A DNA stretch of 64,000 nt. It comes from Promethearchaeota archaeon (lineage in GTDB: Archaea; Asgardarchaeota; Lokiarchaeia; Sigyniarchaeales; SOKP01). Shown here in pieces: positions 26,963 to 41,778 of the stretch. The stretch's first letter is position 1, and each line of letters starts with the position of its first letter. The position numbers and the translations under genes are program-made. The notes below the pieces were generated by a model. That model searched no databases. It had not been told where the DNA came from and was given only the letters and a program-made list of their open reading frames with translations. The DNA lies in the NCBI GenBank assembly GCA_019058295.1, contig JAHPZI010000006.1, forward strand, positions 64,001 to 128,000. Direction: 5' to 3'.

Positions 26963-27043
26963 ACAATTTTAGTTTTAATTCAGTAATTAAAGTGAATAAC
27001 TTAACTGTTTTATATTGAAATTCTGATATTTTTAATCACCCGA

Positions 27044-28849
27044 TCACATCCCCCACCAGGGGTGTTCCTTTTCTCTCTTTAACTGAATATATTCTCTCAA
27101 TGCTTCTTTTTGATCGCTTGTTAATTCGTTTAGAAATTTTGCCATTAACTGTCTTACATGGGATTCTGGAACGTTAACAAATAGCGTTTCGTCTTTCCCA
27201 ATATCACGTCCGATTTCAATACCTCGAACAGATATTGCCACTTCCTTATCTTTATCAGCTTTATCTAAAGATTGACCTTTATCTTGTATTTGATGAACTC
27301 TTCCAATTAGTTTGCCCTTATCAGTTATTAAAGGAACTTTTGATTTTAAAGTGCCTCCTTCGACACTTACACCAAAAACCGCCGGATTTGAATTTCTGAA
27401 AATGTACTCTGGGAACATTTTAATTTTAGCTGGCAAAATTAATTCTCCCAATTCTTTTGCGGTATCTTCAGCTCGTCTAGTCTCTGCATATTCTATATAA
27501 TCCTCTAATAAGCGATATATAACATTATTAGTAAAAATTCTAATATTATCAATGTAAGCTTGCTCCTTCGCTTCAGGCAAAATAGGCACATTAAAGCCTA
27601 AAACCACTGCCGAATATGGATCAAACTCATTAACGATATTAGCGTTCATAATATCTTCTTTTTTAATTGGCCCTACATCTGCGATAGAAATACTTATGCC
27701 ATTTTTAGTTAAATGATTCTCTAAAGCTTCAAGAGATCCTAGAGTATCTGTTTTCAAAACAATACCAGCTTTTTCTGTTTTTATTTTAATACTTTCAACT
27801 TCGGCTTCAATTTCACTATATACGCTTTCTTCTTCGGAAGGGTCTGCAATTATCCTAAAAGGAGAACCAGCCACTACATCTTCAATATTTGGAGCGAGTA
27901 TTTTAAGACCAGCAGCTGCACTTATTAAATCCTTGTTATCAAATTTTTGTCTCGGATCCCTAATCTCATCTAAAGGTTTTGGCACCAATAATGCTCTAAC
28001 TTTTGATTTAATCGGTTTTTCTAAACCTCCAACGATAAAATTATCGCCTTTTCTAATGATTCCATCATATATTAAAAGATCTATTGTTTTTCCATATCCT
28101 TTTTCTTTTTTAACTTCTAATACGACGCCCTTTGCAGGTCCTTCAGAAAATTTCAAATTCTGAGTTAGGAATTGTTGGACTAATCCCATTAGTACCATTA
28201 AAAGAGTAGAAATTCCTTCTCCAGATTTAGCACTGGTGGGAATGATTGCAATTTTTTTTGTAAAGTCTTTTATTTTATCATATCGATCAATTCCTTTAAA
28301 ACCTTCTTCCAAAAAACTACCTACGATTTGAAGAATCTTCTCGTCTAAAAAATCTTTCACATGTGGTTTCTGTTTATTATAGGAATCCAAGAAGTCAGCG
28401 TCTTTTATTGATTTCCAACCTGAAATTCTATCGATTTTATTAGCAGAGATTATAAATGGCGTTTTTTTCTCTCGAAGAATTCGCACAGATTCCCATGTAA
28501 TTGGCATGGTACCAGCAGTTACATCAATGACTAAAATCGCGATATCTGCAACAGCACCGCCTCTTTTCCTTAAATTCATAAAAGCAGCGTGACCAGGAGT
28601 ATCAACAACCAAGATTCCCGGAAGCTTGATATCTTTCTCTGCAAATTCTTTCTTTGATTTTGCTAAGAAATCTTTAATGTTCTCAGTTGGAAAATAAGAT
28701 GCACCTATATGTTGTGTAATTCCTGCGGCCTCTCTTTTTTGAACTATAGTCCCACGGATATAATCCAAAAGGGACGTTTTTCCATGATCTATGTGCCCCA
28801 AAATACACGCTATTGGTGCTCTTATTATTTTCTTTTCTTGCTCAGCCAT
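27044..28849 (-). CDS. infB: Translation initiation factor aIF5B (IF-2)
   Basis: GHIDHGKT, EAAGITQHIGA, DTPGHAAF.NLR.RGG, GSLEAL. Confidence 0.96.
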   Translation of the reverse strand: MAEQEKKIIRAPIACILGHIDHGKTSLLDYIRGTIVQKREAAGITQHIGASYFPTENIKDFLAKSKKEFAEKDIKLPGILVVDTPGHAAFMNLRKRGGAVADIAILVIDVTAGTMPITWESVRILREKKTPFIISANKIDRISGWKSIKDADFLDSYNKQKPHVKDFLDEKILQIVGSFLEEGFKGIDRYDKIKDFTKKIAIIPTSAKSGEGISTLLMVLMGLVQQFLTQNLKFSEGPAKGVVLEVKKEKGYGKTIDLLIYDGIIRKGDNFIVGGLEKPIKSKVRALLVPKPLDEIRDPRQKFDNKDLISAAAGLKILAPNIEDVVAGSPFRIIADPSEEESVYSEIEAEVESIKIKTEKAGIVLKTDTLGSLEALENHLTKNGISISIADVGPIKKEDIMNANIVNEFDPYSAVVLGFNVPILPEAKEQAYIDNIRIFTNNVIYRLLEDYIEYAETRRAEDTAKELGELILPAKIKMFPEYIFRNSNPAVFGVSVEGGTLKSKVPLITDKGKLIGRVHQIQDKGQSLDKADKDKEVAISVRGIEIGRDIGKDETLFVNVPESHVRQLMAKFLNELTSDQKEALREYIQLKREKEHPWWGM

Positions 28850-29078
28850 TTTTTTAATGCTTGCTGGAAATAATTATCTATATGGAATAAAAAATGAATC
28901 TAAAGATTAGAATTTTATTAATGATTTAAAAGTTGAAATTTATATATAATGATTTTTTTTAAACAACATAGTGAGTAAATAGAGTTGGTTAATTATGATA
29001 TTTTTTTATTGGATTGGAAAAAATCTCACTAAAATTAAAAAAAATCGATGAAAATTATATCTAATTATTATATTTGAC

Positions 29079-29927
29079 ATGCCAAAAATTGAAATTAGAT
29101 GCCCAGCTTGTAATAAAAAAGGATATATGGAAGTAGATGGAGTCATTTTAGAAAGGAAAATGGAACGGGGCATTATGACTATAAATTTAGGAAAAGATCA
29201 AATATGTGAGCATACATTCGTAGCCTATATTGATAATAATCTCCAAGTGAGAGATTGTTTTATAACCGATTTTCAAATCGAAATTCCAGAATTAGCTCCA
29301 TCTGAAATAGTTTTAGAAACAAAAATTCCCAGTTCTGAAGAGCTTAATGTAGATTTGATCAAAATGAACTTCTATCCCCTTACACTAACTTTTATTATAA
29401 GAGGAGGTTTTTTAAACAAAAAAATATTAGTTTTGAGTGAAGATGAATTTTTAAATAATTTTCTCAAGAATTTCTTCGAATTTATTTATAAAAATTCCTT
29501 TAATTTAGATATTATCATTTTGTCAATGGAAAAATATAAAAAAAATAAGAAGAATTATGAAGACTTCTTAATTATTAAAGACAAAAAGATTATAAGAGAT
29601 AAGGATAAAATACTTGATGTTAAAAAACTAAAAATAGAAAGTTTAATTATTCAAAGGTTTTATTCTGAATATATAGCAAATTCTAGCTTACTTTTTCTGA
29701 AAAATGAAATTTATAAAACTTATTTATTATCAAAAAGCATTGTAGATTTTATTAAAGAATTTAAAGGAGAAGAATTACTTTCAAAAAATATCCTTGATAA
29801 TTTAGAAAAAGTTCATAATGTTAAAATACAAATACCATATTTGGATTTCTTACTTGAAATTGTTAAAAATTATTTTAAAGTGGAAGTGCCAAAAACATCT
29901 AAAATTTCAGATTTCCTAAAATTTTAA
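29079..29927 (+). CDS. Hypothetical protein with N-terminal CPxC...CxH zinc-binding domain
   Basis: CPAC...ICEHTFVAYID..LQVRD, a pattern I recall from Lokiarchaeal hypothetical proteins. Confidence 0.7.
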   Translation: MPKIEIRCPACNKKGYMEVDGVILERKMERGIMTINLGKDQICEHTFVAYIDNNLQVRDCFITDFQIEIPELAPSEIVLETKIPSSEELNVDLIKMNFYPLTLTFIIRGGFLNKKILVLSEDEFLNNFLKNFFEFIYKNSFNLDIIILSMEKYKKNKKNYEDFLIIKDKKIIRDKDKILDVKKLKIESLIIQRFYSEYIANSSLLFLKNEIYKTYLLSKSIVDFIKEFKGEELLSKNILDNLEKVHNVKIQIPYLDFLLEIVKNYFKVEVPKTSKISDFLKF

Positions 29928-30010
29928 CATGAATTTTATATATAAGAGCATTGATTTATATTATAAATAAAAATATATCATAAAAATATAGAAAAAGTTG
30001 AAATCTGCCT

Positions 30011-30745
30011 ATGGCGTTATATATATTACCAACTGAACAATTAATTAGTGGATTATTCAGCCTTTTTTTTGTGATAATCTCATTAATTATTGGATTAATG
30101 TTAATCTCGAAATATTTCAGATATAAACAAAGTAACTTTTTATTAGTTGGTTTGACGTGGATTGGAATGGTTTCAATATGGTATCCTAGCGCAATCAATG
30201 TAATATATTTTTCCATTACAGGTAAGAGTATATCGGATTTATTATTTATGGCAATTGGAAATGGTTTAATTCCAATTACCGCATTTATTTGGATGATTAC
30301 GTTTACAGATCTTTTATATAAAGAGAAACAAAAAATAATTCTTATAATATTTGGGATTTTAAGCATTTTAACTGAAATCATATTCTTCTATTTTCTCTTT
30401 ACAGAACCATCTGTTCTTGGAAAAGTAGTATCCCCTGTAGACGCTATAACGACATTACCGGTTATAATTTATCATATATCCATATTACTCATGATCTTAA
30501 TAACAGGGATATTAATATGGAGAGAATCTTTAAAATCCACTGATCCAGAAGTTAATTTAAAAGGAAAATTACTTCTTACAGCAGTTTTATCTTTTATCAC
30601 TGGGGCCATTTTTGAAATTTTTAGCGATTTATCAATTATTATAATAATTATAGGTAGATTAATATTGATTTCCTCGAGTCTCGAATTTTATATGGGCTGG
30701 ATACTTCCATCGTTTATCAAAAATCGATTATTAAAAGAGAGTTAA
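30011..30745 (+). CDS. Approximately 7-TM membrane protein, hypothetical
   Basis: About seven hydrophobic segments, no soluble domain. Confidence 0.75.
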   Translation: MALYILPTEQLISGLFSLFFVIISLIIGLMLISKYFRYKQSNFLLVGLTWIGMVSIWYPSAINVIYFSITGKSISDLLFMAIGNGLIPITAFIWMITFTDLLYKEKQKIILIIFGILSILTEIIFFYFLFTEPSVLGKVVSPVDAITTLPVIIYHISILLMILITGILIWRESLKSTDPEVNLKGKLLLTAVLSFITGAIFEIFSDLSIIIIIIGRLILISSSLEFYMGWILPSFIKNRLLKES

Positions 30746-30779
30746 TTTAAAATTAACTTATTATTTTTTTTTTAATCTT

Positions 30780-33653
30780 TCAGTTAGAAAAATTCAGAGA
30801 TTTTTTTAAATATTTAGCTGTATATGATCTTTCATTTCTAATAATCTCTTCCGGACTTCCCATAACAACAATTTCACCCCCTTCATCACCACCTTCTGGA
30901 CCTAAATCAATAATATAATCCACAGATTTTATAATTTCCATATTATGCTCAATAATTATTACGGTATTGCCTTTATCGACTAATCTTTGAAGGACTTTTA
31001 ACAAAATCTTTATATCATAAGCACTTAATCCTGTTGTTGGTTCATCTAGAATATAGAGAGTATTGCCTGTACTCGTTTTTCTTAATTCCCTAGCAATTTT
31101 TAGCCTTTGAGATTCTCCTCCACTTAAAGTTGTTGATGATTGTCCCAATTCTAGGTAACCTAAGCCAACATCCACAACAGTTTTTAGCGTTCTTTTTAGG
31201 TTTGGAAAACTATCAAAGAATTGTAAAGCGTGATCAAAAGTCATGTCCAGAACGTCTGAAATTGTTTTTTTCTTAAATTTAATTTCAAGAGTTTCCGCAT
31301 TATATCGCTTTCCTTTACATAAATCACATCTAATATAAACATCAGGAAGAAAATACATTTCCTTAAGGATGTAGCCTGTGCCTCTACATTTTCTACAATG
31401 ACCTGCCTTTGTATTAAAGCTGAATCTCCCTTTTTTATATCCTCTTTCTCTAGATTCCTGTAATGCAGCAAATATATCTCTAATATAATCCATAGCTTTA
31501 GAATAAGTTGCGGGAACTGACCTTGGTGTCTTTCCTATTGGTGATTGATCAATATTAATGATTTTATCAATGTTCTCAAATCCATTTATTTCATCAAAAT
31601 CACCTGTCCTTAATTTAGAGCTTCGAATATTAACAAGATTATGTAATCCTTTATAAAGACATTCAATAAACAAACTAGTTTTACCAGCTCCTGAAACTCC
31701 TGTTACACACGTAAATATTTCTAATGGAATTTTTACATTTACATTTTTTAAATTGTTTTCTCTAGCGCCTTTAATCTCAATAAAGTCATCTCCAATATTT
31801 CTTCTTTTTTTAGGGATTGCAATTTTCTCTTTTCCAGATAAATATTTTCCAGTTAAACTATTTGCTTTTATTATGTCTTCGACTGGCCCTTCTGCAACTA
31901 TTTCTCCACCGTGTTCTCCTGCCATTGGTCCTAAATCAATGATATGGTCAGCATTTCTAATTACAGCATCATCATGTTCTACAACTAATACAGTATTTCC
32001 TAAATTTCTCAATTTCTTTAGCATATTAACTAATCGAGAGATATCTCTCTGGTGTAAACCTACTGTAGGTTCATCTAAGACATATAAAACACCCACTAAA
32101 GTTGAACCTAATTGAGTTGCTAATCTTATTCTCTCTGCTTCTCCAACAGATAATGTATCTGATCTTCGACTTAATTGAATATAGTCTAATCCAACATTAT
32201 TCAAGAATGAGAGTCTATCCTTAATCTCTTTTAATACATCTTTTACAATAGTTTTCTGAATATCATCAATGCCTAAACTTTCAAAAAATTTTATAGAGTC
32301 TTTTACGGGTAGATTTGTTAATTCAGCGATATTTAAGTCATTAATTGTAACAGCTAAACTTTCAGGCTTTAATTTTTGCCCATTACATTTAGGACAATCA
32401 ATTCGATTCATAAAGCTCTCATAGACTTCACGAGCTCCTTCTGACGTGGTCTCCATATACCTCCGATGTAGCATAGGAATTAAACCTTCAAATGGTCGAG
32501 CCGTTTTCCAGGATGTAAAAGATTCATTATTAGAATTCCTATAGTCATTTCTATCACTAACAAAATGAAAATTTATATTTTCATCCCCTGAACCAAATAA
32601 TAATTTTTGCAATTTATTGGGATCAATTTCTTTAATTGGTGTTTCATCAATATCGAAATCATAATGTTCTGACACTTGATTTATCATTTGCCATGAATAG
32701 CCTGTTGAAGATCTAAATCCTGGTATATTTCTTATACCACTTTCTGCCAGTGGAACAAAAACATTATTTCCCAATATTAAACTATAATCAAATTCCATTA
32801 CAGTGCCCAATCCATTACAATATTTGCAACTACCATGGGGTATATTAAATGAAAACATTTTATGGTCAAGAGGAGGTAAAGAAATTTGGCAATCTAAACA
32901 TGCATAGTGTTCGGAATATATTTGCTCATTTTTTCCTATTAATTCAACAAGAACAATTCCTTCAGTTAATTCCAATGCTGTTTCTATAGAATCAGCAAGC
33001 CGAGTTTTAATGTCCTCTTTCATAACAAGCCTATCGATTATAACATTAATATTGTGTTTCACATGTTTTTCCATTGGAATTTCTTCATCAAGAGTATATT
33101 GAATCCCATCAACTTCTACACGAACATATCCTTGTTTTTTTAGATCTTGTAAAAGTTCTTTATACTCACCTTTTCGATCTCGTATTAAAGGTGCTTTAAT
33201 TATGAATTTTTGATTCTCTTTTAGAGACTTTAGAATTTGATTTATAATTTGTTGAGGTGTTTGAGGTTTGATCTCTTTTCCGCAATTTGGACAATGCGGT
33301 ATCCCTATATTTGCGAATAATAGTCTGTAATAATCGTAAATTTCAGTTACAGTTCCTACGGTACTTCGAGGATTTTTTGAAAGAGGTTTTTGCTCAATTG
33401 CGATAGCAGGTGATAACCCCTCAATAGAATCGACATCTGGTTTGTCCATCTCTCCTAGAAACTGTCTTGCATAGCTTGAGAGAGACTCCAAAAATCTTCT
33501 TTGACCCTCAGCAAATAGAGTATCAATAACTAATGAACTCTTACCACTTCCAGAAACGCCAGTAACAACTACGAGCTTATTTCTGGGAATATTTACGTCA
33601 ATATTCTTTAAATTATGCTGTCTAGCTCCCTTGATTATTATATAATCATTCAT
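30780..33653 (-). CDS. uvrA: Excinuclease ABC subunit A
   Basis: Two Walker A motifs (GVSGSGKSS, GVSGAGKT), zinc fingers, LSVGE/LSGGE signatures, LDEPT. Confidence 0.98.
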   Translation of the reverse strand: MNDYIIIKGARQHNLKNIDVNIPRNKLVVVTGVSGSGKSSLVIDTLFAEGQRRFLESLSSYARQFLGEMDKPDVDSIEGLSPAIAIEQKPLSKNPRSTVGTVTEIYDYYRLLFANIGIPHCPNCGKEIKPQTPQQIINQILKSLKENQKFIIKAPLIRDRKGEYKELLQDLKKQGYVRVEVDGIQYTLDEEIPMEKHVKHNINVIIDRLVMKEDIKTRLADSIETALELTEGIVLVELIGKNEQIYSEHYACLDCQISLPPLDHKMFSFNIPHGSCKYCNGLGTVMEFDYSLILGNNVFVPLAESGIRNIPGFRSSTGYSWQMINQVSEHYDFDIDETPIKEIDPNKLQKLLFGSGDENINFHFVSDRNDYRNSNNESFTSWKTARPFEGLIPMLHRRYMETTSEGAREVYESFMNRIDCPKCNGQKLKPESLAVTINDLNIAELTNLPVKDSIKFFESLGIDDIQKTIVKDVLKEIKDRLSFLNNVGLDYIQLSRRSDTLSVGEAERIRLATQLGSTLVGVLYVLDEPTVGLHQRDISRLVNMLKKLRNLGNTVLVVEHDDAVIRNADHIIDLGPMAGEHGGEIVAEGPVEDIIKANSLTGKYLSGKEKIAIPKKRRNIGDDFIEIKGARENNLKNVNVKIPLEIFTCVTGVSGAGKTSLFIECLYKGLHNLVNIRSSKLRTGDFDEINGFENIDKIINIDQSPIGKTPRSVPATYSKAMDYIRDIFAALQESRERGYKKGRFSFNTKAGHCRKCRGTGYILKEMYFLPDVYIRCDLCKGKRYNAETLEIKFKKKTISDVLDMTFDHALQFFDSFPNLKRTLKTVVDVGLGYLELGQSSTTLSGGESQRLKIARELRKTSTGNTLYILDEPTTGLSAYDIKILLKVLQRLVDKGNTVIIIEHNMEIIKSVDYIIDLGPEGGDEGGEIVVMGSPEEIIRNERSYTAKYLKKSLNFSN

Positions 33654-33813
33654 AAATAATTGCTTATAGTAAAGTAAAATTTGAGATTAATAAAGCACAT
33701 CTTCTAGGTTACTTAAAAGATCGGTTCTTGGTAAACTTTATGAAAAACGTAAACTCTTAAGATTTCTTTTTCTGAGACTTAACCATGATAGAAAGTCATT
33801 CTTCTTTTTGTAT

Positions 33814-34536
33814 TTAATACCCCCAAGGAGGCGGATCGAATATAGTACCATCTCCTATTAAGTCTTCATCAGCATCATCAAACTCTTCATCTTCATAATA
33901 ACTTGTTTTTATAGATCTGAAATATGAAGGGAGTTCCTTAAAGAATTTATTTGGCATATATAATACTTCAAGTGATTTAAGATTAATAAATGATTTAGGA
34001 AGCGATTTTAGCTTATTATCAAGTATATTTAATTTTCTAAGATTTCTTAAATTACCTAAAGAATCTGGAAGGTATTTGAGTTTAGTATGAAATAAATTAA
34101 GATCTATCAAGGATTGTAATTCTCCTATCGGCTCGGGAATCACTTTTAATGAATTTCTACTTAAATCTAATACCTCAAGCATCTCTAAATCAAATATCTG
34201 CTTCGGAAATAATTTAAACTTGTTTTCTTTCAGACTTAGGTATTGAAGCGATGCAAGGTTGGTGATTGATTCGGGAAGAGCTTTTAACTTGTTTTTCTCT
34301 AAATCTAATTCTTTTAAGAACTTAAGTTCACAAATAGTCTTAGGTAAGAATTTTAATTTACAATTAGATAAACCTAATTTTGTTATATTCTTCCCATCAG
34401 ATTCAAATCCAAACTCAAAGAATCCTTTTCCATAGGTTCGAGTAATAGGTCTTTTTATGAGTTGCTCTAATTCTGTTAATGCCTTAGCTTCGGATTTCGG
34501 GATTTCTGCGCCTCTAAAGGAAAATAATTTACTCAT
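33814..34536 (-). CDS. Leucine-rich repeat protein (short, acidic C-terminal tail)
   Basis: About six 23-aa LRRs; N-cap similar to 16438..17832. Confidence 0.92.
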   Translation of the reverse strand: MSKLFSFRGAEIPKSEAKALTELEQLIKRPITRTYGKGFFEFGFESDGKNITKLGLSNCKLKFLPKTICELKFLKELDLEKNKLKALPESITNLASLQYLSLKENKFKLFPKQIFDLEMLEVLDLSRNSLKVIPEPIGELQSLIDLNLFHTKLKYLPDSLGNLRNLRKLNILDNKLKSLPKSFINLKSLEVLYMPNKFFKELPSYFRSIKTSYYEDEEFDDADEDLIGDGTIFDPPPWGY

Positions 34537-34588
34537 AATTTAATCTCTTTTTAGCTTATTCAAGATAAAATGTCAAATTTGTTGTCAT

Positions 34589-35128
34589 TTAAGGTATTCC
34601 TTGTTTGTATTTCAAGATTAATCGCTCGGTTTCTTTATACTCAGTAACCCATTGATCGCTTATAATATATGGGTCTTGATTCTTAATATAAATATAAATA
34701 AACCAAAATAACCCTTTGGAAAGACCTTTTTTGTTTTTGACTGTCTTTCTTTCTGATTTAGAATTTGTTATTATATCAAATGGAATGAAAATGCGTTTTA
34801 AGGGAATTAATGGATTAAATTTTTCAGCTAAAATATGATCTTTTCGATATTCAATTTTTCTGACTAATACCCCATTTTCATAAATGACAACATAGGTTAA
34901 GAAAAACCGAATAATCCAAAAAATAAAAAACATCCCTGAAATCAAAATAAGAGCACTAATTATTAATTTAAACACATCAAATGTATTTAGAATATTCAAG
35001 AAATTTAAGTAAAATCCGAGCAGTCCAATGGAGGTAAAAAAAAAACCCATAAAGCATAGAATAACAATTCCAAACCAAGGTCTATGTGCTTTACTTTTAA
35101 ATAATAATTTACCTCTTTTAGCTTTCAT
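34589..35128 (-). CDS. 2-TM membrane protein with probable PH-like soluble domain
   Basis: Two TM helices followed by VVIYENGVLV...FIPFDIIT, a bacterial PH-like pattern. Confidence 0.65.
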   Translation of the reverse strand: MKAKRGKLLFKSKAHRPWFGIVILCFMGFFFTSIGLLGFYLNFLNILNTFDVFKLIISALILISGMFFIFWIIRFFLTYVVIYENGVLVRKIEYRKDHILAEKFNPLIPLKRIFIPFDIITNSKSERKTVKNKKGLSKGLFWFIYIYIKNQDPYIISDQWVTEYKETERLILKYKQGIP

Positions 35129-35164
35129 AAGAATTGTCTTCTATGTTTTTTTTATTAGGAATAA

Positions 35165-35800
35165 TTATGTAAGATTTAGATTCTCCAAAGTTTTTTTTGC
35201 TATTTCCTTGTCTTCTTTTGAAAGAGAATCTAAAAAAAAATTAATTTCATCTTTTATGAGAAAAATTATATCCTCAAAAGCAAATCTAGTAAAAAATCTT
35301 GATATTTTTTCACATAATACTTTTTGTGCTTCATTCTTTAATCTCGCTACAAAATATTTTTCAAGACTTCCAGTAAAAAATTCATAGGGTATCAGAAATA
35401 GATTTTTAAAGTCTAATAATTTGGGTTCCTTAAATAACTCAATCTCGTCAGAAGGGGGAAAATAATGTATTCTAGTATCATCTCTTATAATACTCTTTAT
35501 TCCTTTGATCCTTTTCTCTAAGTTGCTCGGAGAAAGTTTATCTTTTGGTAATTTTTTTAGTTCAGCAAATAAAATTGAAGAATTTGGTCTTATATCACAA
35601 GATTGTGATAAAATAACACCCGTAGTTAAAAAAGGTCTGACATTATAACTAGCTTTTTTTGGTAATTTGTCTGAATTTAAAGACTTTAACCATTCTTCCT
35701 TTATCTTGCTAAAATCAATTTGATTTGGAGTAATTTTCGGGAGATTTTGTAAAATATCTCCTTGATTGAGATAATCAGGGATTTCTTTTATGTAAATCAT
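35165..35800 (-). CDS. Hypothetical protein with QGDIL...ILSQSCDI motif; possible PemK/MazF-like fold
   Basis: LNQGDIL...GVILSQSCDI...ILFAEL...LLDFKNLF...RL...FFTRFA. Confidence 0.55.
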   Translation of the reverse strand: MIYIKEIPDYLNQGDILQNLPKITPNQIDFSKIKEEWLKSLNSDKLPKKASYNVRPFLTTGVILSQSCDIRPNSSILFAELKKLPKDKLSPSNLEKRIKGIKSIIRDDTRIHYFPPSDEIELFKEPKLLDFKNLFLIPYEFFTGSLEKYFVARLKNEAQKVLCEKISRFFTRFAFEDIIFLIKDEINFFLDSLSKEDKEIAKKTLENLNLT

Positions 35801-35815
35801 TTAAATTCAGTATAA

Positions 35816-36427
35816 CTAATAATTTAATATTCTAGATACATCTTCTTCAAATCTAATATGATTTTCCGTTTCTTTTTCTAACATTTTCAAACAATCAATT
35901 AAATCTTTTATAGTATCAATATACTCCAGAGGAGTATTGGATAATAATGAATTTTTATAAGATTCTAGAAAATTTAGATCAATCCAATAAGTCGGACAAA
36001 TTTTCCATTGAAGAGCAGCATTTATTTTATCAAATGTCTCAGAATTTATCATATCGAGACCAAATAATTGAAATATCTCGAAAATTTGTCCAAATGTAAA
36101 AAAAATCTGCTTTTTTGTTTTTTTTGAATCTAAAAGAATATTTTCTATAAATTTATCGAAAATTTGAGGTAATATTTCTTTAAAGCCAAAATAAATTTTC
36201 TTTAAAGCCAATATTATTTTATTTAATATTTCATAAAGGAAATTAAAAAATCGTACAATAAAACTTTCACTCTCTTCAATAGCAAGGGTTGGAGCTGTGG
36301 TAATTTCTGTGCTTTCATATTTTTCAATATCCTCGAATTCTTCGAAATTTCTATAAGCATTAAATAAACTTTCTGATAAATTTTTGATAATATCTTCATT
36401 ATATAACGCAGATTGAACTTCAGTCAT
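35816..36427 (-). CDS. Hypothetical helical protein (middle gene of triad)
   Basis: ATG at 36427 lies just inside the 3' end of the upstream gene (aATGACTGA), suggesting translational coupling. Confidence 0.7.
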   Translation of the reverse strand: MTEVQSALYNEDIIKNLSESLFNAYRNFEEFEDIEKYESTEITTAPTLAIEESESFIVRFFNFLYEILNKIILALKKIYFGFKEILPQIFDKFIENILLDSKKTKKQIFFTFGQIFEIFQLFGLDMINSETFDKINAALQWKICPTYWIDLNFLESYKNSLLSNTPLEYIDTIKDLIDCLKMLEKETENHIRFEEDVSRILNY

Positions 36428-37154
36428 TTTTTTTAACACCTAAAGTTTGCCTTAAATTTTCACTCATTATATTGAAGAAATAATCAATAATGGTATCATG
36501 AACATAATTTAAATCATCAATTAAGATCTGTTCATCATCAATTGAGAATTCTTTCTGCTTTAAATAAATACTTTCTAATCGAAATAGAAAAGATTCAATT
36601 TCTTTTATTGGTATTCCACGTAATCTAATTATAAATGTATCATTTTCCAGAGTATTTATTTTAATACCGGTATGAAAATCATTAAAGTCAATGCTCCACT
36701 TTTCTGGTTTATTAATAGACAAATTAAAATAATTGCCTAGATCAAAATTCTTTTTTGGAAAAGTAAATTCATCAATATATTCCATTCTAAATTGCTCAAT
36801 TTTATCTATTTCTAGGATCTTGCATGAATTTAATACCAATTTGACTATTTCCCCTTTTATTTCATTCCAATGCGTATATTCCGTGAAAATAAATATTAGA
36901 CCATCTGAAAAAAACTGAATTTGTCCACTTTTTTCTTTATTTAAAAATCTAATAGGTCCTATTTGAATTGGGACTTTTGCCTTTATTTTAACATCATAAG
37001 GATATTCTATAATATCTAAACTAGGAGCATTAGGATAATCTTTTTTAAGAAGCTCTTCAACTTTGGACATCATTTCAAATGATATTTTCTCAGGCTTTTT
37101 AAATTTAAAATCTATCCTAAAAGTTTTAAGAGGTGGCTTTTCTATTGTTAGCAT
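36420..37154 (-). CDS. TIGR04255-like family protein
   Basis: N-terminal KPPL...F, YTHWNE, IEQFRMEYIDEF, C-terminal LNYVHD...F...SE pattern and about 245-aa size. Confidence 0.65.
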   Translation of the reverse strand: MLTIEKPPLKTFRIDFKFKKPEKISFEMMSKVEELLKKDYPNAPSLDIIEYPYDVKIKAKVPIQIGPIRFLNKEKSGQIQFFSDGLIFIFTEYTHWNEIKGEIVKLVLNSCKILEIDKIEQFRMEYIDEFTFPKKNFDLGNYFNLSINKPEKWSIDFNDFHTGIKINTLENDTFIIRLRGIPIKEIESFLFRLESIYLKQKEFSIDDEQILIDDLNYVHDTIIDYFFNIMSENLRQTLGVKKND

Positions 37155-37332
37155 TGTTTTTTTCTAATATTATTTATGAATATATTGTCATTTACCAATA
37201 AATTTTTTATGTTTATAAAATCCTTGAAAAAGAAACTAAAAAACGCCAAGAGAGAACTAATATTAGAAAGTTGAAATAGAATGTAAGGGAGAAGGGATAA
37301 AAGAGAATCCAATAATTATTGAATCCGTATCA

Positions 37333-37470
37333 CTAATAGGTTTTTCTTTTGTTCGATTTTTCATCTCTCCTTGATTTACTTGATTGAAGGAAATGATTAA
37401 TAAGGTAAATAATAGCGGAAACAAATCCAATAATTGCTGTTGCTAGATTAATCAAATCTGAGATATTCAT
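37333..37470 (-). CDS. 45-aa single-TM peptide with basic C-terminus
   Basis: MNISDLINLATAIIGFVSAIIYLINHFLQSSKSRRDEKSNKRKTY; below the ORF-track cutoff. Confidence 0.45.
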   Translation of the reverse strand: MNISDLINLATAIIGFVSAIIYLINHFLQSSKSRRDEKSNKRKTY

Positions 37471-37552
37471 TTTACTTTTTTATGAAAATAATATTTTTAT
37501 TTTGTTAATACTTAAATAGAAAGATTGACTTATTTTATTTATGGTGACTAGA

Positions 37553-37570
37553 ATGGTCAACATTGACTAT
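37553..37570. promoter_or_regulatory. Imperfect palindrome atgGTCAAcaTTGACtat in a divergent promoter; candidate operator
   Basis: GTCAA-N2-TTGAC dyad with additional TGACT half-sites nearby (about 37526 and 37545). Confidence 0.35.
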
Positions 37571-37607
37571 TTAATATTAAAACATAATCAATAATAACTT
37601 TAAGAAA

Positions 37608-38639
37608 ATGATTAATAAAGCAAATATCTATAGCATTTCTCTTATCATAGAGTATCTGTGGTATAATCCTCGTCGTAAAATGGAGGATTTAATTAAAAAT
37701 AAAGTAAGAAGTAAGAATACTTTAAAACGCTATTTATATGGTCAGAGATATGGATATAGTGACGACGAAAGCTTAATAGATAATGGAATTTTAATTGCTC
37801 ATTCTACAACAAAGAAAAAAAGTAGAAAAACTGGTAAAATAAAATCTTACCCTGATGAATTTGAAGTTAATCAAGATTGGTTAATTTCGAATATTAATAA
37901 ATTTCCTAATATAAAAAAAGTAATCCGTTTTGGTAATGAGGATTTTGGATATGAATTCTATACTGTTGATGAAGCACGAAAAAAAATCGAAGAAGATAAG
38001 GGATATAGAGAAATGGATGCAATTTATCAAATTTATGAGAGTATCTTTGCAAATTCTATTTCTCATGAAATAAAACAAAATCCCAATTCAAAGTCATTTT
38101 ATTTCTCTGAAGAACAAAGAATTGCAAAAAGCTGGTTGATATATGGATTATTACTTATTTCTTTCGCATATAACCCAGATTTATGGAATTCATTAGAAAA
38201 AGTGGATGATTTTAATTTTGAAATGACAATTAAAATAGATATTCCAAAAGAATATCAAAATGATTTCTTTAATGCTTTTCAAAAAGTAAGGGATTTTTGC
38301 ATGAAAAAAAAACAGTTACCTTCTTCCTTAAAATTTCCCTTAGAAAAAAGTTTAGCACATATTCGTAGAATGAGTAAAGGACTTCTTATTAAAAATCCAC
38401 CAAAGACGTCAAAGGAGGATAAAAAAGAAATACCATTCCATAATGATCTTGATGTGTTTGAGGCTGTCGCATATATGCAACAAGGAACTTATGAGGAAAA
38501 TAAAAATAAGATTAATGCTGAAAATAAAAAGGATTTAAGAGAACTCATCGAACTTTTAAAAATATCAAAACCTTACTACCAAGGAAGCCAAGAATTAAAA
38601 TCGATTAATAAGCAATTGAAAAAAGTAAAAAAAAAATAA
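37608..38639 (+). CDS. Hypothetical protein with probable N-terminal winged helix-turn-helix
   Basis: IIEYLWYNPRRKMEDLIKNKVRSKNTLKRYL...LIDNGIL followed by a basic wing. Confidence 0.6.
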   Translation: MINKANIYSISLIIEYLWYNPRRKMEDLIKNKVRSKNTLKRYLYGQRYGYSDDESLIDNGILIAHSTTKKKSRKTGKIKSYPDEFEVNQDWLISNINKFPNIKKVIRFGNEDFGYEFYTVDEARKKIEEDKGYREMDAIYQIYESIFANSISHEIKQNPNSKSFYFSEEQRIAKSWLIYGLLLISFAYNPDLWNSLEKVDDFNFEMTIKIDIPKEYQNDFFNAFQKVRDFCMKKKQLPSSLKFPLEKSLAHIRRMSKGLLIKNPPKTSKEDKKEIPFHNDLDVFEAVAYMQQGTYEENKNKINAENKKDLRELIELLKISKPYYQGSQELKSINKQLKKVKKK

Positions 38640-38704
38640 TTTCTATCAAATTTTAACCAAAAATATAAAAGCTGTTATTTCTTAAATAATAGAGAAGGAA
38701 CTTA

Positions 38705-39376
38705 TTAGGGAAACATTTTAAAAAAATTTCTTAATCCAATAATCATAATCTTTACTTCCTCTTCAGAATAATTATTATAATTACCATGTGCTGCATCATT
38801 CCTTATGCCTAACCAAGCTGTCACTTGTTTCATCTGAGTTTTTGAGTAAACATTTTCCCCTTTCAAATCTGAATTCATCTGATCAGCTTTTTTAGGTTTT
38901 ACTCTCCCAGATGTCGTAATTTCTATATCAATGCCATTTTTTTCACATAGCTTTCTTAGATGTTCTTCTAAGGTACTTCCTGCTATAACAGCAGAAGCAT
39001 CTTTATATTTCTCATCTAAAAGATATTGTGCCATATCTAAATAATCAGAAAAAATATCTCCATGTATTAATTCTGATACTGTCTTAAGGTAATCTTGTTG
39101 CAAATCCTTATATAATGCAATTAAGGCTCCTTTAACAAATTTAAAGCGATTTACAATTAATTTATCACTTTCAAAATATTCTTCAATTCTTATATAATAT
39201 TCTGATTTTTTACCTGCAATCCTATCTATCACTGATAATGCTCTTGTAATACAAGTACTTAAAAATTCTCTACTTTTATTTACTGAACCAGCATATTGAC
39301 CATTCTTCACACTATTAATATCACTTAAAATTTCTTCAATTTGTTTAATAAAAACCTTATTTAATTCTTCTACTAT
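38705..39376 (-). CDS. HEPN/DUF4145-like protein
   Basis: ASAVIAGSTLEEHLRKL and RNDAAH (RxxxxH). The frame is open 22 codons upstream of the track's GTG (39310) to an ATA preceded by AGGTGA. Confidence 0.8.
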   Translation of the reverse strand: MVEELNKVFIKQIEEILSDINSVKNGQYAGSVNKSREFLSTCITRALSVIDRIAGKKSEYYIRIEEYFESDKLIVNRFKFVKGALIALYKDLQQDYLKTVSELIHGDIFSDYLDMAQYLLDEKYKDASAVIAGSTLEEHLRKLCEKNGIDIEITTSGRVKPKKADQMNSDLKGENVYSKTQMKQVTAWLGIRNDAAHGNYNNYSEEEVKIMIIGLRNFFKMFP

Positions 39377-39470
39377 TGGATATCACCTGAATTTTTATTA
39401 ATTAATATAAGCCATTCATATAATAAGTAATTTGATATGACAATTTATTATAAATAACAAAGAAAGAATT

Positions 39471-39593
39471 TTATAAGTTCCCACCCCCACTTACCCCCAT
39501 AATCACAACTAATTTATTTCTGGGAATAATTACATTAATATTCTTTAAATTGTTCTGCCTAGCCCCTTTAATTATAATGGGATTATCAGTCAT
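39471..39593 (-). pseudogene. uvrA: Truncated uvrA 5' fragment (40 codons)
   Basis: [40 protein letters not shown] versus intact [39 protein letters not shown]. Confidence 0.92.
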
Positions 39594-39660
39594 CTCTTAT
39601 CAATGATTATTGAATTAATCAAAAATGAAAAATTCTACGATTTTATTTTATAAGAATTCT

Positions 39661-41652
39661 TTAAATCTTTAATTTTAACTTAAGTTCTTTGATTCTATCC
39701 CTCAAATACGCAGCATCTTCAAATCTTAATTCTTTTGCTGCTAAAAACATTTTATTCTCAAGATATTGTATAATCATCTCATTATCACCTAATTCTTCCA
39801 TTTTATCCTCGATTGTTCTTTTCAACCTCTTGCTTTCTTTCTCCTTGAATTCTTTTTCTTCTGAAAGTGATTCTAAGATATTCTTTTTGACTGTTTGAGG
39901 TGTAATATTATTAACTTCATTATATGAGATTTGTTTAGCTCTCCTTCTGTTTGTCTCATCAATTGCAGCTTTCATCGCAGGAGATGTTTTATCAGCATAT
40001 AATATAGCCCTCCCGTTAATGTTTCTTGATGCCCTTCCTATAGTTTGGATTAATGAGCGAGTATCTCTCAAAAAGCCAAGTTTATCTGCATCGAGTATAG
40101 CCACTAATTGAACTTCTGGTAAATCAAGACCTTCACGTAGGAGATTTATACCTACAACGCTGTCGAAGGTTCCATCTCTTAGTTTTCTTAAAATTTCAAA
40201 CCTTTCTACAGTATCAACTTCGGAATGTAAGTATGCAATTTTAATTCCCAATTCTGCATAATATTCTGCAATATCTTCAGCCATTCTTTTAGTTAATGTA
40301 GTAATCAAAATCCTTCCTTTATTATTTATAACTTTGCGGAGTTCCCCTAGTAAATCATCTATTTGGTTTTCAGCTGACCTAACTTCAATCTGAGGATCGA
40401 CTAATCCAGTAGGGCGAATGATTTGTTCTGCCGAAATTCCACCACTTTTCTTTAATTCATAATCTCCTGGAGTAGCACTCATAAAAATAATATATTTAAT
40501 TTTGCTTTCCCATTCTTCAAAAGTTAATGGTCTATTATCGTAAGCGCTTGGAAGCCGCCACCCATATTCTATCAGATTTTTCTTACGTGCTTTGTCACCG
40601 CCTATCATACCACGGATTTGCGGAACCGTAACGTGAGATTCGTCTACTACAATCAAAAAATCTTGTGGGAAATAGTCAATCAAATTCATTGGGGGTTTTC
40701 CTGGAGGTCGCCCATCCAAATGTCTTGAATAATTTTCAATTCCCTTACAATAGCCCATCTCTCTCATCATTTCTAAATCAAATTTTACTCTCCTTTCAAT
40801 ACGTTGAGCTTCTGCGTACTTTTTTTCATTTTTAAAGAATGCAATCTGTTTCTTTAATTCCATTTTTATGGATTCTAATGCTTTTATTTTATTTTCTTCT
40901 GGAATAATAAAATGGGTAGCTGGAAAAATTCGACAATTGGGTAATTCTTTAAGAACTTGATTAGAAAGCGGATGGATTTCTTGAATTGATTCAATCTCGT
41001 CTCCAAATAACGATATTCTTATAGCTGTATCTAAGTATGCTGGAAAAATATCAACAATATCTCCTTTCACTCTAACAACGCCCCTTTTAAATTCAATGTT
41101 TTTTCGTTCGTAATTCATTTTGATTACGCGTTTCAATATATCAGATCTTTTAATAGTTTGTCCTACTTCTAAATCCAATGAAACAGCAACCCATTCATCA
41201 GGATTTCCAATTCCATAAATGCATGAAACGCTAGCGACTATTATTACGTCCTCTCTAGTTTTTATCGCATGGGTAGACGCCAATCTTAATTTTTCAATTT
41301 CCTCGTTTACGCTAAAATCTTTTTCAATATACAAACCAGTAATCGGCATATAAGCTTCAGGTTGATAATAATCATAATATGAGACGAAATAATGAACTGC
41401 ATTATGAGGAAAGAGTTCTTTAAGTTCATTATATAATTGTGCCGCTAAAGTTTTATTTGGAGCCATTACTAATGTAGGTTTCTGGACTTCTTGAATTATA
41501 TTAGCAATTGTAAAAGTCTTTCCTGTTCCGGTCGCACCTAATAATGTTTGAAAGCTTTTACCATTTTTAATATTTTTAACAAGATTTTTAATTGCTTGAG
41601 GTTGATCTCCTCGTGCCGTAAATTCAGACTCTATTTTGAATTTTTTACTCAT
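39661..41652 (-). CDS. uvrB: Excinuclease ABC subunit B
   Basis: GDQPQAI, GATGTGKT, FVSYYDYYQPEAY, DESH, INLLREGLDLPEV, C-terminal UVR domain. Confidence 0.98.
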   Translation of the reverse strand: MSKKFKIESEFTARGDQPQAIKNLVKNIKNGKSFQTLLGATGTGKTFTIANIIQEVQKPTLVMAPNKTLAAQLYNELKELFPHNAVHYFVSYYDYYQPEAYMPITGLYIEKDFSVNEEIEKLRLASTHAIKTREDVIIVASVSCIYGIGNPDEWVAVSLDLEVGQTIKRSDILKRVIKMNYERKNIEFKRGVVRVKGDIVDIFPAYLDTAIRISLFGDEIESIQEIHPLSNQVLKELPNCRIFPATHFIIPEENKIKALESIKMELKKQIAFFKNEKKYAEAQRIERRVKFDLEMMREMGYCKGIENYSRHLDGRPPGKPPMNLIDYFPQDFLIVVDESHVTVPQIRGMIGGDKARKKNLIEYGWRLPSAYDNRPLTFEEWESKIKYIIFMSATPGDYELKKSGGISAEQIIRPTGLVDPQIEVRSAENQIDDLLGELRKVINNKGRILITTLTKRMAEDIAEYYAELGIKIAYLHSEVDTVERFEILRKLRDGTFDSVVGINLLREGLDLPEVQLVAILDADKLGFLRDTRSLIQTIGRASRNINGRAILYADKTSPAMKAAIDETNRRRAKQISYNEVNNITPQTVKKNILESLSEEKEFKEKESKRLKRTIEDKMEELGDNEMIIQYLENKMFLAAKELRFEDAAYLRDRIKELKLKLKI

Positions 41653-41778
41653 ATGAATTAAATATTGTTTTAATGAAAAATTTAAGATTTAAATATATAT
41701 AAACGATTAGACTAAACTATTTTAATGAATAATGGCTTAAGATTTTTATGATGTTAAGTAAAAATTAATGTCTATAAT

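Follow-up and report, generated by a model that had tools for sequence, protein, structure and literature searches.

The question raised by this locus is why the DNA-repair gene uvrA begins twice, and how the DNA between its two starts arrived. The window analyzed herein is a 64-kb stretch of the Promethearchaeota archaeon contig JAHPZI010000006.1, belonging to a metagenome bin (G000) that is 79% complete with 3.6% contamination. The original prediction held that an ancestral uvrB-uvrA operon had been split by incoming DNA that carried its own uvrA start.

Two uvrA starts in the window

The features of the locus are as follows.

39661..41652, minus strand: uvrB, 663 aa, 98% identical to the UvrB of the relative G007; Pfam UvrB_inter, UvrB, Helicase_C, UVR
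39641..39653, minus strand: TTATAAAATAAAA box, directly after the uvrB stop and now preceding the remnant
39471..39593, minus strand: remnant ORF of 40 codons, judged to be the native uvrA start; begins 67 nt after the uvrB stop
33654..39477, no strand assigned: inserted cassette, 5,824 nt, GC 26%
38705..39310, minus strand: cargo, 201-aa protein, weakly matching RiboL-PSP HEPN below the Pfam cut-off
37608..38639, plus strand: cargo, 343-aa protein without a family match, the sole opposite-strand gene
35165..37154, minus strand: cargo, three-gene module (TIGR04255 protein, 207-aa and 211-aa proteins)
36420-37154, minus strand: TIGR04255 protein gene, first of the module
35816-36439, minus strand: 207-aa protein gene of the module
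35165-35800, minus strand: 211-aa protein gene of the module
34589..35128, minus strand: cargo, 179-aa hydrophobic protein without a family match
33814..34536, minus strand: cargo, 240-aa leucine-rich-repeat protein; Pfam LRR_14, LRR_8
33693..33797, minus strand: nuclease-gene relic of 36 codons (about codons 980-1015 of 1035), with one in-frame stop
33504..33653, minus strand: replacement uvrA start, nt 1-150, of foreign type, fused in frame to the native gene
33457..33503, minus strand: 47-nt block identical to G007, codons of QRRFLESLSSYARQF; holds the right-hand crossover
30780..33653, minus strand: working uvrA, 957 aa, intact, 95% identical to G007

The predicted duplicate start after uvrB (ORF 39593-39471) is real. 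The two 15-mers common to both copies are exact at 33600/39537 and 33577/39514 and occur nowhere else in the window, and no further uvrA 5' copy is present in the whole G000 genome. The copies are identical at 76 of 101 nt, with a longest identical run of 15 nt, and differ over 30 aligned codons by 12 synonymous and 6 non-synonymous changes. The working gene is a class I UvrA of full length without stops; UvrA_inter and UvrA_DNA-bind are listed for an identical gene.

In the closest relative, G007, uvrB and uvrA are adjacent, which represents the empty site. G007 aligns to the window at 25714-33654 and 39478-45651, and the two alignments overlap by 117 nt within G007. The uvrA-derived part of the remnant is 116 nt long (39593-39478, native uvrA nt 1-116) and ends inside the Walker-A codons; beyond 39478 the remnant side has no further uvrA similarity. 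Nucleotides 1-94 are identical to G007, four substitutions follow (39499, 39486, 39485, 39480), and identity is lost from 39478. The TTATAAAATAAAA box is kept ahead of native uvrA in most relatives, as read by eye from upstream alignments, and is probably the native uvrA TATA box.

The first 150 nt of the working uvrA are about 78% identical to G007 versus about 95% downstream. Windows of 60 nt over nt 14-133 gave 73-83% identity, the last foreign-type difference is at nt 150, and the best DNA match to this start among all sampled sequences is 80%. The 160 nt ahead of the working start bear no relation to the native intergenic sequence. The inserted DNA brings new first codons and its own upstream region, and probably supplies its own uvrA promoter. 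The GC content is 26.1% in the island versus 32-33% in uvrA and uvrB. By these comparisons, the native uvrA start is the remnant, which matches the G007 allele, and the start now in use is of foreign origin, in agreement with the incoming DNA that had been predicted.

Cargo of the inserted cassette

The match of the 201-aa protein to RiboL-PSP HEPN has an E-value of 4.8e-6 and 27.0 bits against a cut-off of 28.4, and DNA relatives of its gene at about 70% are found elsewhere in G047, G061, G106, and G009. The TIGR04255 assignment was made at 47.4 bits against a curated cut-off of 30, covering profile positions 2-252 of 252. The entire three-gene module recurs at 77% DNA identity in G060:C60, away from uvrA, and at 65-69% in G055. 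The leucine-rich-repeat gene has a gene-sized homologue (83% nt) in a different context in SDBV01025658. A tblastn search of P0020 against the window gave a single match, the relic (20/36 identical, E 1e-4), directly upstream of the working uvrA, which is the position of the intact nuclease copies in relatives. Family profile scans of the seven cargo ORFs found no integrase family, and the single PF00589 (tyrosine recombinase) match in the G000 genome is on another contig, C28; the predicted lack of a recombinase was thereby confirmed. Neither a tRNA gene nor terminal repeats were found at the island.

Recurrence across Lokiarchaeia

A gap of at most 100 nt between uvrB and uvrA was counted by hand in 57 of the 91 family genomes that have both genes on one contig. 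By this tally adjacency is the common state, in line with the predicted ancestral pair. The same architecture with unrelated cargo was found in at least 12 other Lokiarchaeal assemblies from three genera. Both empty sites and alternative cargo are present among the relatives, and the variety of inserts marks the site as a cargo hotspot, as had been proposed. Housekeeping-type genes are found in many of the inserts, among them genes for PFL-like enzymes, an Opp transporter, and a CLC channel.

The remnants end mostly within the Walker-A codons (G111, G116, G065, G120, G086, G062/G085, G008:C329, and L164/L165). The scatter of these ends is about 18 nt wide, and this 18-nt interval takes in eight or more junctions followed by unrelated DNA. 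Three junctions are earlier, at codons ~12 and ~22; the one in G134 clearly arose secondarily, by a deletion that reached into the nuclease gene. The junction clusters coincide with the only two GC-rich patches of the AT-rich uvrA start. In L164 and G111 the remnant end is identical to the nucleotide and the sequences diverge straight after. Serial insertions were found in G062 and G085, where the stranded remnant itself is of the cassette type. One 90% UvrA cluster contains both native-type and cassette-type starts; the native-type member that was looked up (P0009) adjoins uvrB, and both cassette-type members looked up (P0008, P0011) are behind inserts. Pfam scans of ORFs from the inserts of G000, G120, and G111 and of representative shared genes from the other inserts gave no integrase family, and no uvrA start was found on Asgard-like viral contigs. 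The recurrence points to a recombination-driven, possibly homing-like insertion hotspot.

Recombination joints

The joints of the window lie in the conserved flanks: the right joint is within the 47-nt identical block, and the left joint is upstream of remnant nt ~88-95. The foreign tract of the working uvrA extends about 35 nt beyond the end point of the remnant (116 vs 150), which excludes a single att-type crossover. Similar patterns were seen in other pairs. G111 and G120 are identical in the left flank up to remnant nt ~88 and then show nine third-position differences in a patch; their working copies are about 78% identical to nt ~165 and about 97% beyond. Between L164 and the empty-site L162, homology stops at nt 117 and restarts at nt ~142-145. 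Thus, in three independent pairs (G000/G007, G111/G120, L164/L162) the switch from element to host in the working copy is 30-50 nt past the remnant end, and the joints are within about 25-50 nt on each side of the insertion point. Short foreign tracts flank the Walker-A junctions on both sides in the three pairs, a pattern that would suit co-conversion during homing and plain recombination alike. The original prediction had likened the island to SXT/R391 at prfC. The supply of a new start by the insert stands; taken to the letter, with a core common to both ends and an integrase, the analogy breaks down, as the foreign tract continues past the remnant end.

The right-end module and its nuclease-like protein

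The cassettes are of common descent although their cargo varies, and what unites them is a right-end module. It consists of a gene for a LAGLIDADG-fold and Cas4/Exo5-like PD-(D/E)XK protein, a spacer of about 115 nt, and the replacement uvrA start. The nuclease-like protein has 1035 aa (gene at L164:6780-9887). Intact genes are present in L164/L165, G008:C247, and G120, and the G134 copy has an internal stop. Most cassettes, that of G000 included, are without an intact nuclease gene; 3'-end relics were found in G000, G147, G085, and G108. Close homologues of the gene (68-96%) were found only directly upstream of cassette-type uvrA. All three nuclease-bearing cassettes with a known start read ...SLVIN..., in place of ...SLAMD... 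in native alleles; the SLVIN variant is also present in the adjacent-type G019.

The spacer is 74-92% conserved over 12 cassettes, against a shuffle maximum of 71%. The G000 spacer is 61% identical to the family spacer, which is the shuffle level and gives no detectable relationship. What links G000 to the nuclease cassettes is therefore the relic of 36 codons, together with signature residues in the replacement start.

The fold model of the nuclease-like protein (pLDDT 78) matches PI-SceI, PI-PfuI, and I-DmoI, as well as the nuclease domains of AdnA, Exo5, and Cas4 type. E...GHIDL...DxK is conserved. Both LAGLIDADG motifs, inspected by eye, are apparently without the usual acidic residues, so any cutting would come from the PD-(D/E)XK domain. 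No Hint or intein family matched at E<=1, and splicing domains are absent. Among the relatives of the nuclease, one candidate is located directly upstream of argS.

Origin of the island

The reading put forward here, at slightly less than even confidence, is that uvrA-start replacement cassettes form a family circulating among Lokiarchaeia, with spread possibly triggered by a nuclease, and that the island is one of its members in a decayed state. The original prediction had offered a decayed or trans-mobilized element and a homologous-recombination cassette as alternatives; the data are compatible with the two together.

An assembly chimera of two strains, or an in-situ tandem duplication of the uvrA start followed by divergence, is improbable in the extreme. 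The DNA is from a metagenome bin, and an assembler might in principle be misled by the 47 identical nucleotides at the right boundary. However, a second assembler gave the identical 12.2 kb (the independent Logan assembly of run SRR14802572, 12,224 nt over both junctions with zero mismatches), the left junction has only about 5 nt in common with uvrA, too few for a k-mer join, and the same structure is present in the 12 or more other independent assemblies. Local duplication is excluded by a start diverged by 22% beside a gene body diverged by 5%. A decayed site-specific integrative element of the SXT/R391-at-prfC type, with its attB in the uvrA start and its integrase lost, is very unlikely. 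It would account for the same target across many genomes, for a replacement start that probably comes with its own promoter, and for the serial insertions with cassette-type remnants in G062 and G085. Against it stand the lack of any integrase family in the scanned insert ORFs, with the lone PF00589 match of G000 on C28, the lack of a shared core, and the switch 30-50 nt past the remnant end in three pairs; Asgard-like viral contigs without a uvrA start and the lack of a tRNA gene or terminal repeats also argue against it.

Ordinary recombination alone is a serious, if rather doubtful, possibility. In this case, a cargo-linked foreign uvrA would have crossed over in the invariant block of nt 151-197, the other end would have been joined illegitimately at a GC-rich patch of the resident uvrA (homology-facilitated illegitimate recombination, HFIR), later spread would have used the remnant and uvrA' as arms, and the nuclease gene would be merely the oldest passenger. 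The replaced tract overshoots the remnant, and the loss of native nt ~117-153 is what a double crossover with insertion plus deletion would leave. The coincidence of the junction clusters with the two G/C-rich patches, the housekeeping-type genes in many inserts, and the lack of an intact nuclease in the window agree with this, and short tracts ending in the nearest identical blocks are expected between diverged DNAs. HFIR elsewhere uses microhomologies of 3-10 bp and leaves displaced remnants (PMC3240628, PMC5361080). For the cargo of the window, DNA comparisons found no donor context of the left end. However, at least eight junctions with unrelated downstream DNA fall inside 18 nt, and the shared remnant end of L164 and G111, with different sequence directly after, suggests that the junction itself is recombination-active. 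The tight linkage of the nuclease gene to uvrA' would also have to be a coincidence.

For a cassette family with a nuclease trigger, the following course is proposed. A full cassette occupies the Walker-A codons of uvrA, leaving the native promoter and the first ~39 codons stranded behind uvrB, and the substitute start at its right end keeps the repair gene whole. The family would spread by homologous recombination with short tracts. The putative cassette nuclease may cut the native gene in the Walker-A codons or close to them, with repair of the break from cassette-bearing DNA; this step, too, is proposed at slightly less than even confidence. In such homing-like copying the donor remnant would be the left arm and uvrA' the right arm. 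The endonuclease-like fold and the restriction of close nuclease homologues to the position upstream of cassette-type uvrA speak for this step; the altered LAGLIDADG motifs, the lack of an intact nuclease gene in most cassettes, the scatter of remnant ends with three earlier junctions, and the unrelated G000 spacer weigh against it. In the window, the nuclease gene has been lost except for 36 codons, with defense-like cargo occupying the space; having lost it, this copy would now be movable only passively, by homologous recombination. With a little more reserve, we suggest a new style of homing in Asgard archaea, in which a predicted-nuclease cassette at P-loop codons brings its own spacer and a cleavage-resistant copy of the first ~50 codons, and nothing is spliced. 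In each following round the stranded old start would provide the left homology arm, and cargo such as defense genes would accumulate between the arms. Relatives of the nuclease may act likewise at other housekeeping genes, the gene upstream of argS being a candidate.

Comparison with known systems

Inteins and group I introns insert at P-loop codons of conserved genes. The uvrA cassettes share with them the most conserved ATPase motif as the target and a LAGLIDADG-fold protein aboard; unlike them, they have no splicing domains, and a duplication mends the gene in the DNA itself, not in its RNA or protein. SXT/R391 enters prfC at its 5' end by means of a tyrosine integrase and a short core common to element and host, and gives the gene a new promoter and new first codons. 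Both systems target the start of a conserved gene and supply replacement codons, but the uvrA cassettes have neither integrase nor shared core, and the switch points of the two copies differ. Neisseria minimal mobile elements are alternative cassettes between conserved genes, exchanged by homologous recombination without mobility genes. Their interchangeable cargo and lack of mobility genes resemble the uvrA cassettes, whereas their intergenic position, without a duplicated gene end or a linked nuclease, does not.

The free-standing homing endonuclease genes of T-even phages (SegF, SegG, MobE) perform 'intronless homing' (review PMC2988022). As in the uvrA cassettes, the nuclease gene is beside its presumed target gene, no integrase is involved, and the sequence near the site is not the same in the resident allele. 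The phage genes spread when a break is repaired from the allele that bears the nuclease, with flanking markers co-converted, and the spread proposed here would be of this kind. In contrast, the uvrA insert is inside the coding region at the presumed cut site, an intron-like position with nothing spliced, and the duplicated start with its own spacer restores the gene while the old start is stranded. The uvrA cassette is further distinguished by its archaeal chromosome and its LAGLIDADG-fold and Cas4/Exo5-like fusion, a putative nuclease. In HFIR/displacement arrays of T6SS effector-immunity modules and Rhs orphans, the 3' ends of toxin genes are replaced (PMC5361080, PMC3240628). There too a conserved gene part is the anchor, remnants are stranded, no recombinase is present, and arrays are transferred by homologous recombination. 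The uvrA cassettes differ in that they replace the 5' end of a housekeeping repair gene together with the DNA upstream of it, in that their arms are overlapping pieces of the same 200 nt, and in the strong clustering of their junctions.

Significance

The new elements here are the recurrence with unrelated cargo, the shared right-end module, and the nuclease relic in the window. If the LAGLIDADG/PD-(D/E)XK protein is the trigger, this would be an undescribed homing strategy in which a gene end is replaced instead of spliced. Nature would then also have provided a sequence-specific knock-in system whose short arms are defined (uvrA nt 1-116 and 1-200), a possible guide for building genetic tools in cultured Lokiarchaeia. 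Alleles of uvrA that are empty, occupied, or occupied in series are all at hand for comparison. For marker-gene phylogenies it is relevant that housekeeping genes in Lokiarchaeal genomes can be mosaics with tracts of as little as 150 nt. Gene movement among Asgard archaea, the closest prokaryotic relatives of eukaryotes, is little known, and the uvrA locus is a concrete, reused route: a repair-gene hotspot that exchanges defense genes, transporters, and glycyl-radical enzymes over at least three genera without any integrase.

Insertion and start replacement at uvrA in the window

The uvrA sequences of the window are as follows.

39593-39471, minus strand: remnant ORF, a 40-residue UvrA-like start with a stop inside Walker A
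33653-30780, minus strand: intact working uvrA, 957 aa

The remnant starts 67 nt after the uvrB stop. It is identical to the start of the working uvrA at 76 of 101 nt, with a longest identical run of 15 nt, and the 30 aligned codons carry 12 synonymous and 6 non-synonymous differences. The two 15-mers that the original prediction had reported as shared by both copies are present where it placed them and nowhere else in the window. These two are the only uvrA starts in the 3.2-Mb bin, and an exact look-up of the 40-aa remnant product gave no exact match on record.

Among the species collected, G007 is nearest: its UvrB is 98% and its UvrA 95% identical to those of the window, and its uvrB and uvrA are about 84 nt apart (an empty site). 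G007 was aligned to window positions 25714-33654 and 39478-45651, with a 117-nt overlap in G007 that is the uvrA start. This indicates that the insert is 33654-39477. The remnant and the preceding intergenic region match G007 almost perfectly, which indicates that the remnant is the native uvrA start. Its coding differences from G007 are confined to the last 22 nt (39499, 39486, 39485, and 39480), and identity is lost from 39478. In the working uvrA, identity to G007 is 73-83% in 60-nt windows across nt 14-133 and averages about 95% over the remainder of the gene; beyond nt 150, where the last foreign-type difference lies, comes a 47-nt block identical to G007. The foreign tract extends about 35 nt past the remnant end, and about 35 nt of native sequence is missing. 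The best DNA match of the working start in the 154 genomes of the order is only 80%, so the donor lies outside the sampled genomes; at the protein level, the closest start is that of uvrA in G111, a different genus, at 93%. The remnant is the copy that matches the nearest relative, and the working start is foreign. As had been proposed, uvrB and uvrA were split by incoming DNA with its own uvrA start: the insertion took place in an empty ancestral site, and the gene start was replaced together with new upstream DNA.

Two features near the site were also observed. A box like TTATAAAATAAAA lies at 39641-39653, immediately 3' of the uvrB stop, and is conserved across genera at the same place, which suggests that uvrA has its own promoter and is not solely co-transcribed with uvrB. 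In the window, this box now faces the remnant and a HEPN-like gene. Upstream of uvrB, an STT3/AglB homologue of 1,332 aa (41779-45777) has its core up to about residue 590, followed by a long C-terminal extension with an Ig-like match; the STT3/AglB gene stands beside uvrB in all relatives looked at.

Insertions at the uvrA start in relatives

The relatives are Lokiarchaeota (Promethearchaeota) MAGs. The uvrB-uvrA gaps were tallied for family f1 by combining uvrA starts and uvrB ends by hand. The gap is 100 nt or less in 57 genomes, 100-1000 nt in 15, and more than 1 kb (up to 20.6 kb) in 19, and the two genes are on different contigs in 16, all of these genomes being metagenome bins and the counts being non-independent across kin. 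Both empty sites, in the 57 genomes with the shortest gaps, and varied alternative cargo were found, in agreement with the cargo hotspot that had been proposed. Judged from these genome comparisons, the uvrA start is a family-wide insertion hotspot.

Inserts between uvrB and uvrA in relatives.
G103, G063, G147: CLC channel
G072, G083, G089, G065: 20-kb block with two PFL-like glycyl-radical enzymes, an Opp-type ABC transporter, an enoyl-CoA hydratase, and a ferredoxin
G120: DUF4238, Fic, and other accessory genes
G111: membrane protein and an IS4-type transposase relic
L166: LRR and WD40 giants

Several assemblies showed further features. In G001, uvrB and uvrA are at least 5.4 kb apart, at the end of contig C10 (L045) and the start of C6 (L044); the break is inside a BcrAD/BadFG-type activase gene, probably the place where C10 joins C6. 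In the G008 bin, a uvrA remnant of the type of genus g2 (C329, L049) and a g2-type nuclease cassette (C247, L169) lie on two short contigs, although the bin has its own intact uvrB-uvrA pair, side by side, on C19; C329 and C247 are probably mis-binned DNA of a second Lokiarchaeon. Clustered UvrA paralogues, about 41% identical, are present in G017:C22, G023:C289, and G024:C37, and some of them are open frames of about 1,625-1,656 aa with two or three UvrA-like units in tandem.

Remnants and recombination junctions

Stranded uvrA starts were found after uvrB or inside the insert in G111, G116, G065, G120, G086, G062 and G085 (one event), G008:C329, and the metagenome contigs L164/L165. All of them end within the Walker-A codons, with a spread of about 18 nt, and the longest has about 39 codons. 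The DNA past the break is unrelated between junctions, except that G062 equals G085. None of 8 remnants showed significant similarity to uvrA codons 39-108 after the break, and a hidden decayed continuation was therefore rejected. Inspection by eye of the DNA after uvrB revealed shorter remnants, of about 12 codons in G134 and G001 and 22 codons in G072/G083, so the statement that every break falls exactly at Walker A had to be softened. In G134, the remnant is fused into the nuclease gene at about codon 225, which indicates a secondary deletion. The start left behind in G062 and G085 is of the cassette type too, indicating serial insertion.

Paired comparisons located the joints. G111 and G120 are near-identical from uvrB through the intergenic region to remnant nt 88 (one mismatch); 9 third-codon-position differences follow in the final 30 nt of the remnant, and after them unrelated cargo. 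Their working uvrA genes share about 78% identity up to nt ~165 and about 97% beyond it. Between occupied L164 and the empty site L162, homology is lost at uvrA nt 117 and regained at nt ~142-145. Comparison with the L162 native allele shows the remnant of G120 to be native through its last codon, whereas the L164/G111 remnant terminates in a patch derived from a different functional allele. In a single UvrA cluster at 90% identity, the native-type start (MIVDS...) is found with uvrB adjacency and cassette-type starts (MNDY, MNEY, or MNEF) with inserts. These comparisons indicate that the cassette moves with a short Walker-A patch on the left and uvrA nt 1 to ~150-165 on the right, and that both recombination joints lie in the nearest conserved blocks, near the insertion point.

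The right-end module and its predicted nuclease

P0020, a protein of 1035 aa, is encoded immediately upstream of the replacement start in L164/L165 (L164:6780-9887). It contains an N-terminal zinc-ribbon-like segment and LAGLIDADG_3, and its C-terminal domain has a homologue in a ubiquitous PD-(D/E)XK-type protein of 244 aa. The protein family has 222 members, and E...GHIDL...DxK is kept across 30 of them. Sequence search of the nuclease against PDB sequences gave zero matches, and only fold comparison was informative. The AlphaFold model of residues 560-1035 (mean pLDDT 78) matches the LAGLIDADG homing endonucleases PI-SceI, PI-PfuI, and I-DmoI with probability 1.0 and E 7e-4 to 1e-2, and also the nuclease domains of AdnA, Exo5, and Cas4 type. 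By eye, both LAGLIDADG motifs are without the usual acidic residue, so this domain may only bind DNA.

Among the 154 genomes, nuclease homologues at least 68% identical occur only immediately upstream of cassette-type uvrA (G120:C75, G134:C147, G108:C279, and G008:C247, the last contig terminating in the first codons of a cassette-type start). Those of G120 and G008:C247 are relatives of P0020 at 96%. Relics of the last 36-59 nuclease codons are at the same position in G147, G108:C7, G085 (before the internal remnant), and the window.

33797-33693, minus strand: nuclease relic of the window, 20/36 residues identical, one in-frame stop, tblastn E 1e-4

This relic is the sole tblastn match in the 64 kb, at exactly the expected position. 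The spacer of about 115 nt from the nuclease stop to the uvrA ATG is 74-92% conserved among 12 cassettes (shuffle maximum 71%); that of the window, at 61%, has no recognisable relation to the family spacer. The common right end indicates that the cassettes are of shared descent, whatever their cargo. The module is distributed horizontally over genera g1, g2, and g11, and the window cassette is a degenerate copy of the family.

Related genes were also seen near argS. In L171 (4367-8621; GCA_030605085.1, JAUWBH010000030.1), P0021, an 807-aa homologue 60% identical to the cassette nuclease, is coded on the strand of argS, about 200 nt before it, and the nuclease family may thus have argS as a second target. 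Sequence faintly resembling ArgRS codons 1-25 (MKLINKK...) lies 4.2 kb upstream of argS; with E only 0.057 and no close relative for empty-site comparison, it was not accepted as a remnant. In L184 (G111:C5:8534-13660, minus strand), an open frame of 1,709 aa ends in ArgRS; its N-terminal part of about 1,100 residues matches neither ArgRS nor the cassette nuclease, and a link to the nuclease was rejected.

Cargo of the window insert

Cargo in the order from uvrB to uvrA.
201-aa protein: weak HEPN (RiboL-PSP) match
343-aa orphan: opposite strand to the other cargo
35165-37154: three-gene module, TIGR04255 protein first
179-aa hydrophobic protein
240-aa leucine-rich-repeat protein

PADLOC gave zero matches for any cargo protein, so only the weak HEPN match, TIGR04255, and the context speak for a defence island. 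A donor search of the island DNA against the 154 genomes found separate modules only, at 65-77% identity. The TIGR04255/207-aa/211-aa trio is a conserved three-gene unit with 65-77% DNA identity across genera in differing contexts, with relatives in L054 (G060:C60:71266-73330; 77% identical) and G055:C92. Relatives of the HEPN protein occur in four genomes in unrelated contexts, and the LRR protein had a single homologue (83% nt) in a metagenome scan, on a contig without uvrA. By its sequence matches, the insert is a mosaic: every module has relatives in other places, where the surroundings are unrelated. The 211-aa third trio protein has a weak PHROGs match, phrog_4575.

Mechanism of cassette spread

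An assembly artefact or a duplication is highly improbable. In the Logan assembly of SRR14802572, 12,224 nt covering STT3, uvrB, the remnant, all cargo, and uvrA matched with zero mismatches; given this second assembly and the recurrence in relatives, chimeric assembly is unlikely. Local duplication of the uvrA start is excluded by divergence of 22% versus 5%. A decayed integrase element is also improbable. None of the window cargo ORFs matched integrase families, and the sole tyrosine recombinase match of the genome is on contig C28; the earlier statement that no recombinase is present was upheld, and the cassette has no dedicated one. Neither tRNA genes nor terminal repeats, inverted or direct, were found in the insert, apart from the uvrA repeat. 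Conservative site-specific recombination or a Campbell-type single crossover would place both switch points at one place; they are about 35 nt apart in three pairs, and a single crossover of a circle with a uvrA fragment is ruled out. Element-borne starts were searched for in IMG/VR with UvrA residues 1-60, and nothing Asgard-like was found; the matches were full bacterial uvrA genes and a single fragment at the terminus of a high-GC contig. That contig, L152 (IMGVR_UViG_2811995052_000012, GC 66%; 71-205), viral or proviral, ends with only the first ~46 uvrA codons and possibly marks a prophage edge within the start of a bacterial uvrA.

Homing-like spread is the reading preferred here, tentatively and at a little short of an even chance. 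The cassette protein would cut native uvrA at the Walker-A codons or close to them. Resection would carry the right end into the invariant block, the left end would pair with the donor's remnant, and repair synthesis would copy the cargo together with the nuclease gene, the spacer, and the variant start. Consistent with this are the clustering of the junctions, the donor-type patches flanking the insertion, the choice of the P-loop as target, and the linkage to the nuclease. So are the use of one junction nucleotide for two different cargoes, in L164 and in G111, and the many degenerate copies expected from the life cycle of homing genes. It resembles intronless homing of T-even phages (PMC2988022). 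Alternatively, the nuclease gene may be a passenger, with one-sided homologous plus illegitimate recombination at GC-rich patches, then cassette exchange through the arms. This is a real possibility, albeit a doubtful one: the two junction clusters coincide with the only G/C-rich patches of the uvrA start, and the same route, recombination and then exchange through arms, has been proposed for T6SS and Rhs displacement arrays (PMC5361080, PMC3240628).

Significance of the uvrA cassettes

The cassettes combine a hotspot, a displaced gene end, start restoration, and a putative homing-type gene in archaeal chromosomes, and this combination is new. Restoration of a gene start by an insert is known from SXT at prfC, and recombination hotspots, displaced gene ends, and free-standing homing genes are already known. 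Also new are the replacement of a 5' end without an integrase, the arms that are overlapping pieces of one 200-nt stretch, and the linked LAGLIDADG/PD-(D/E)XK protein with its predicted nuclease function.
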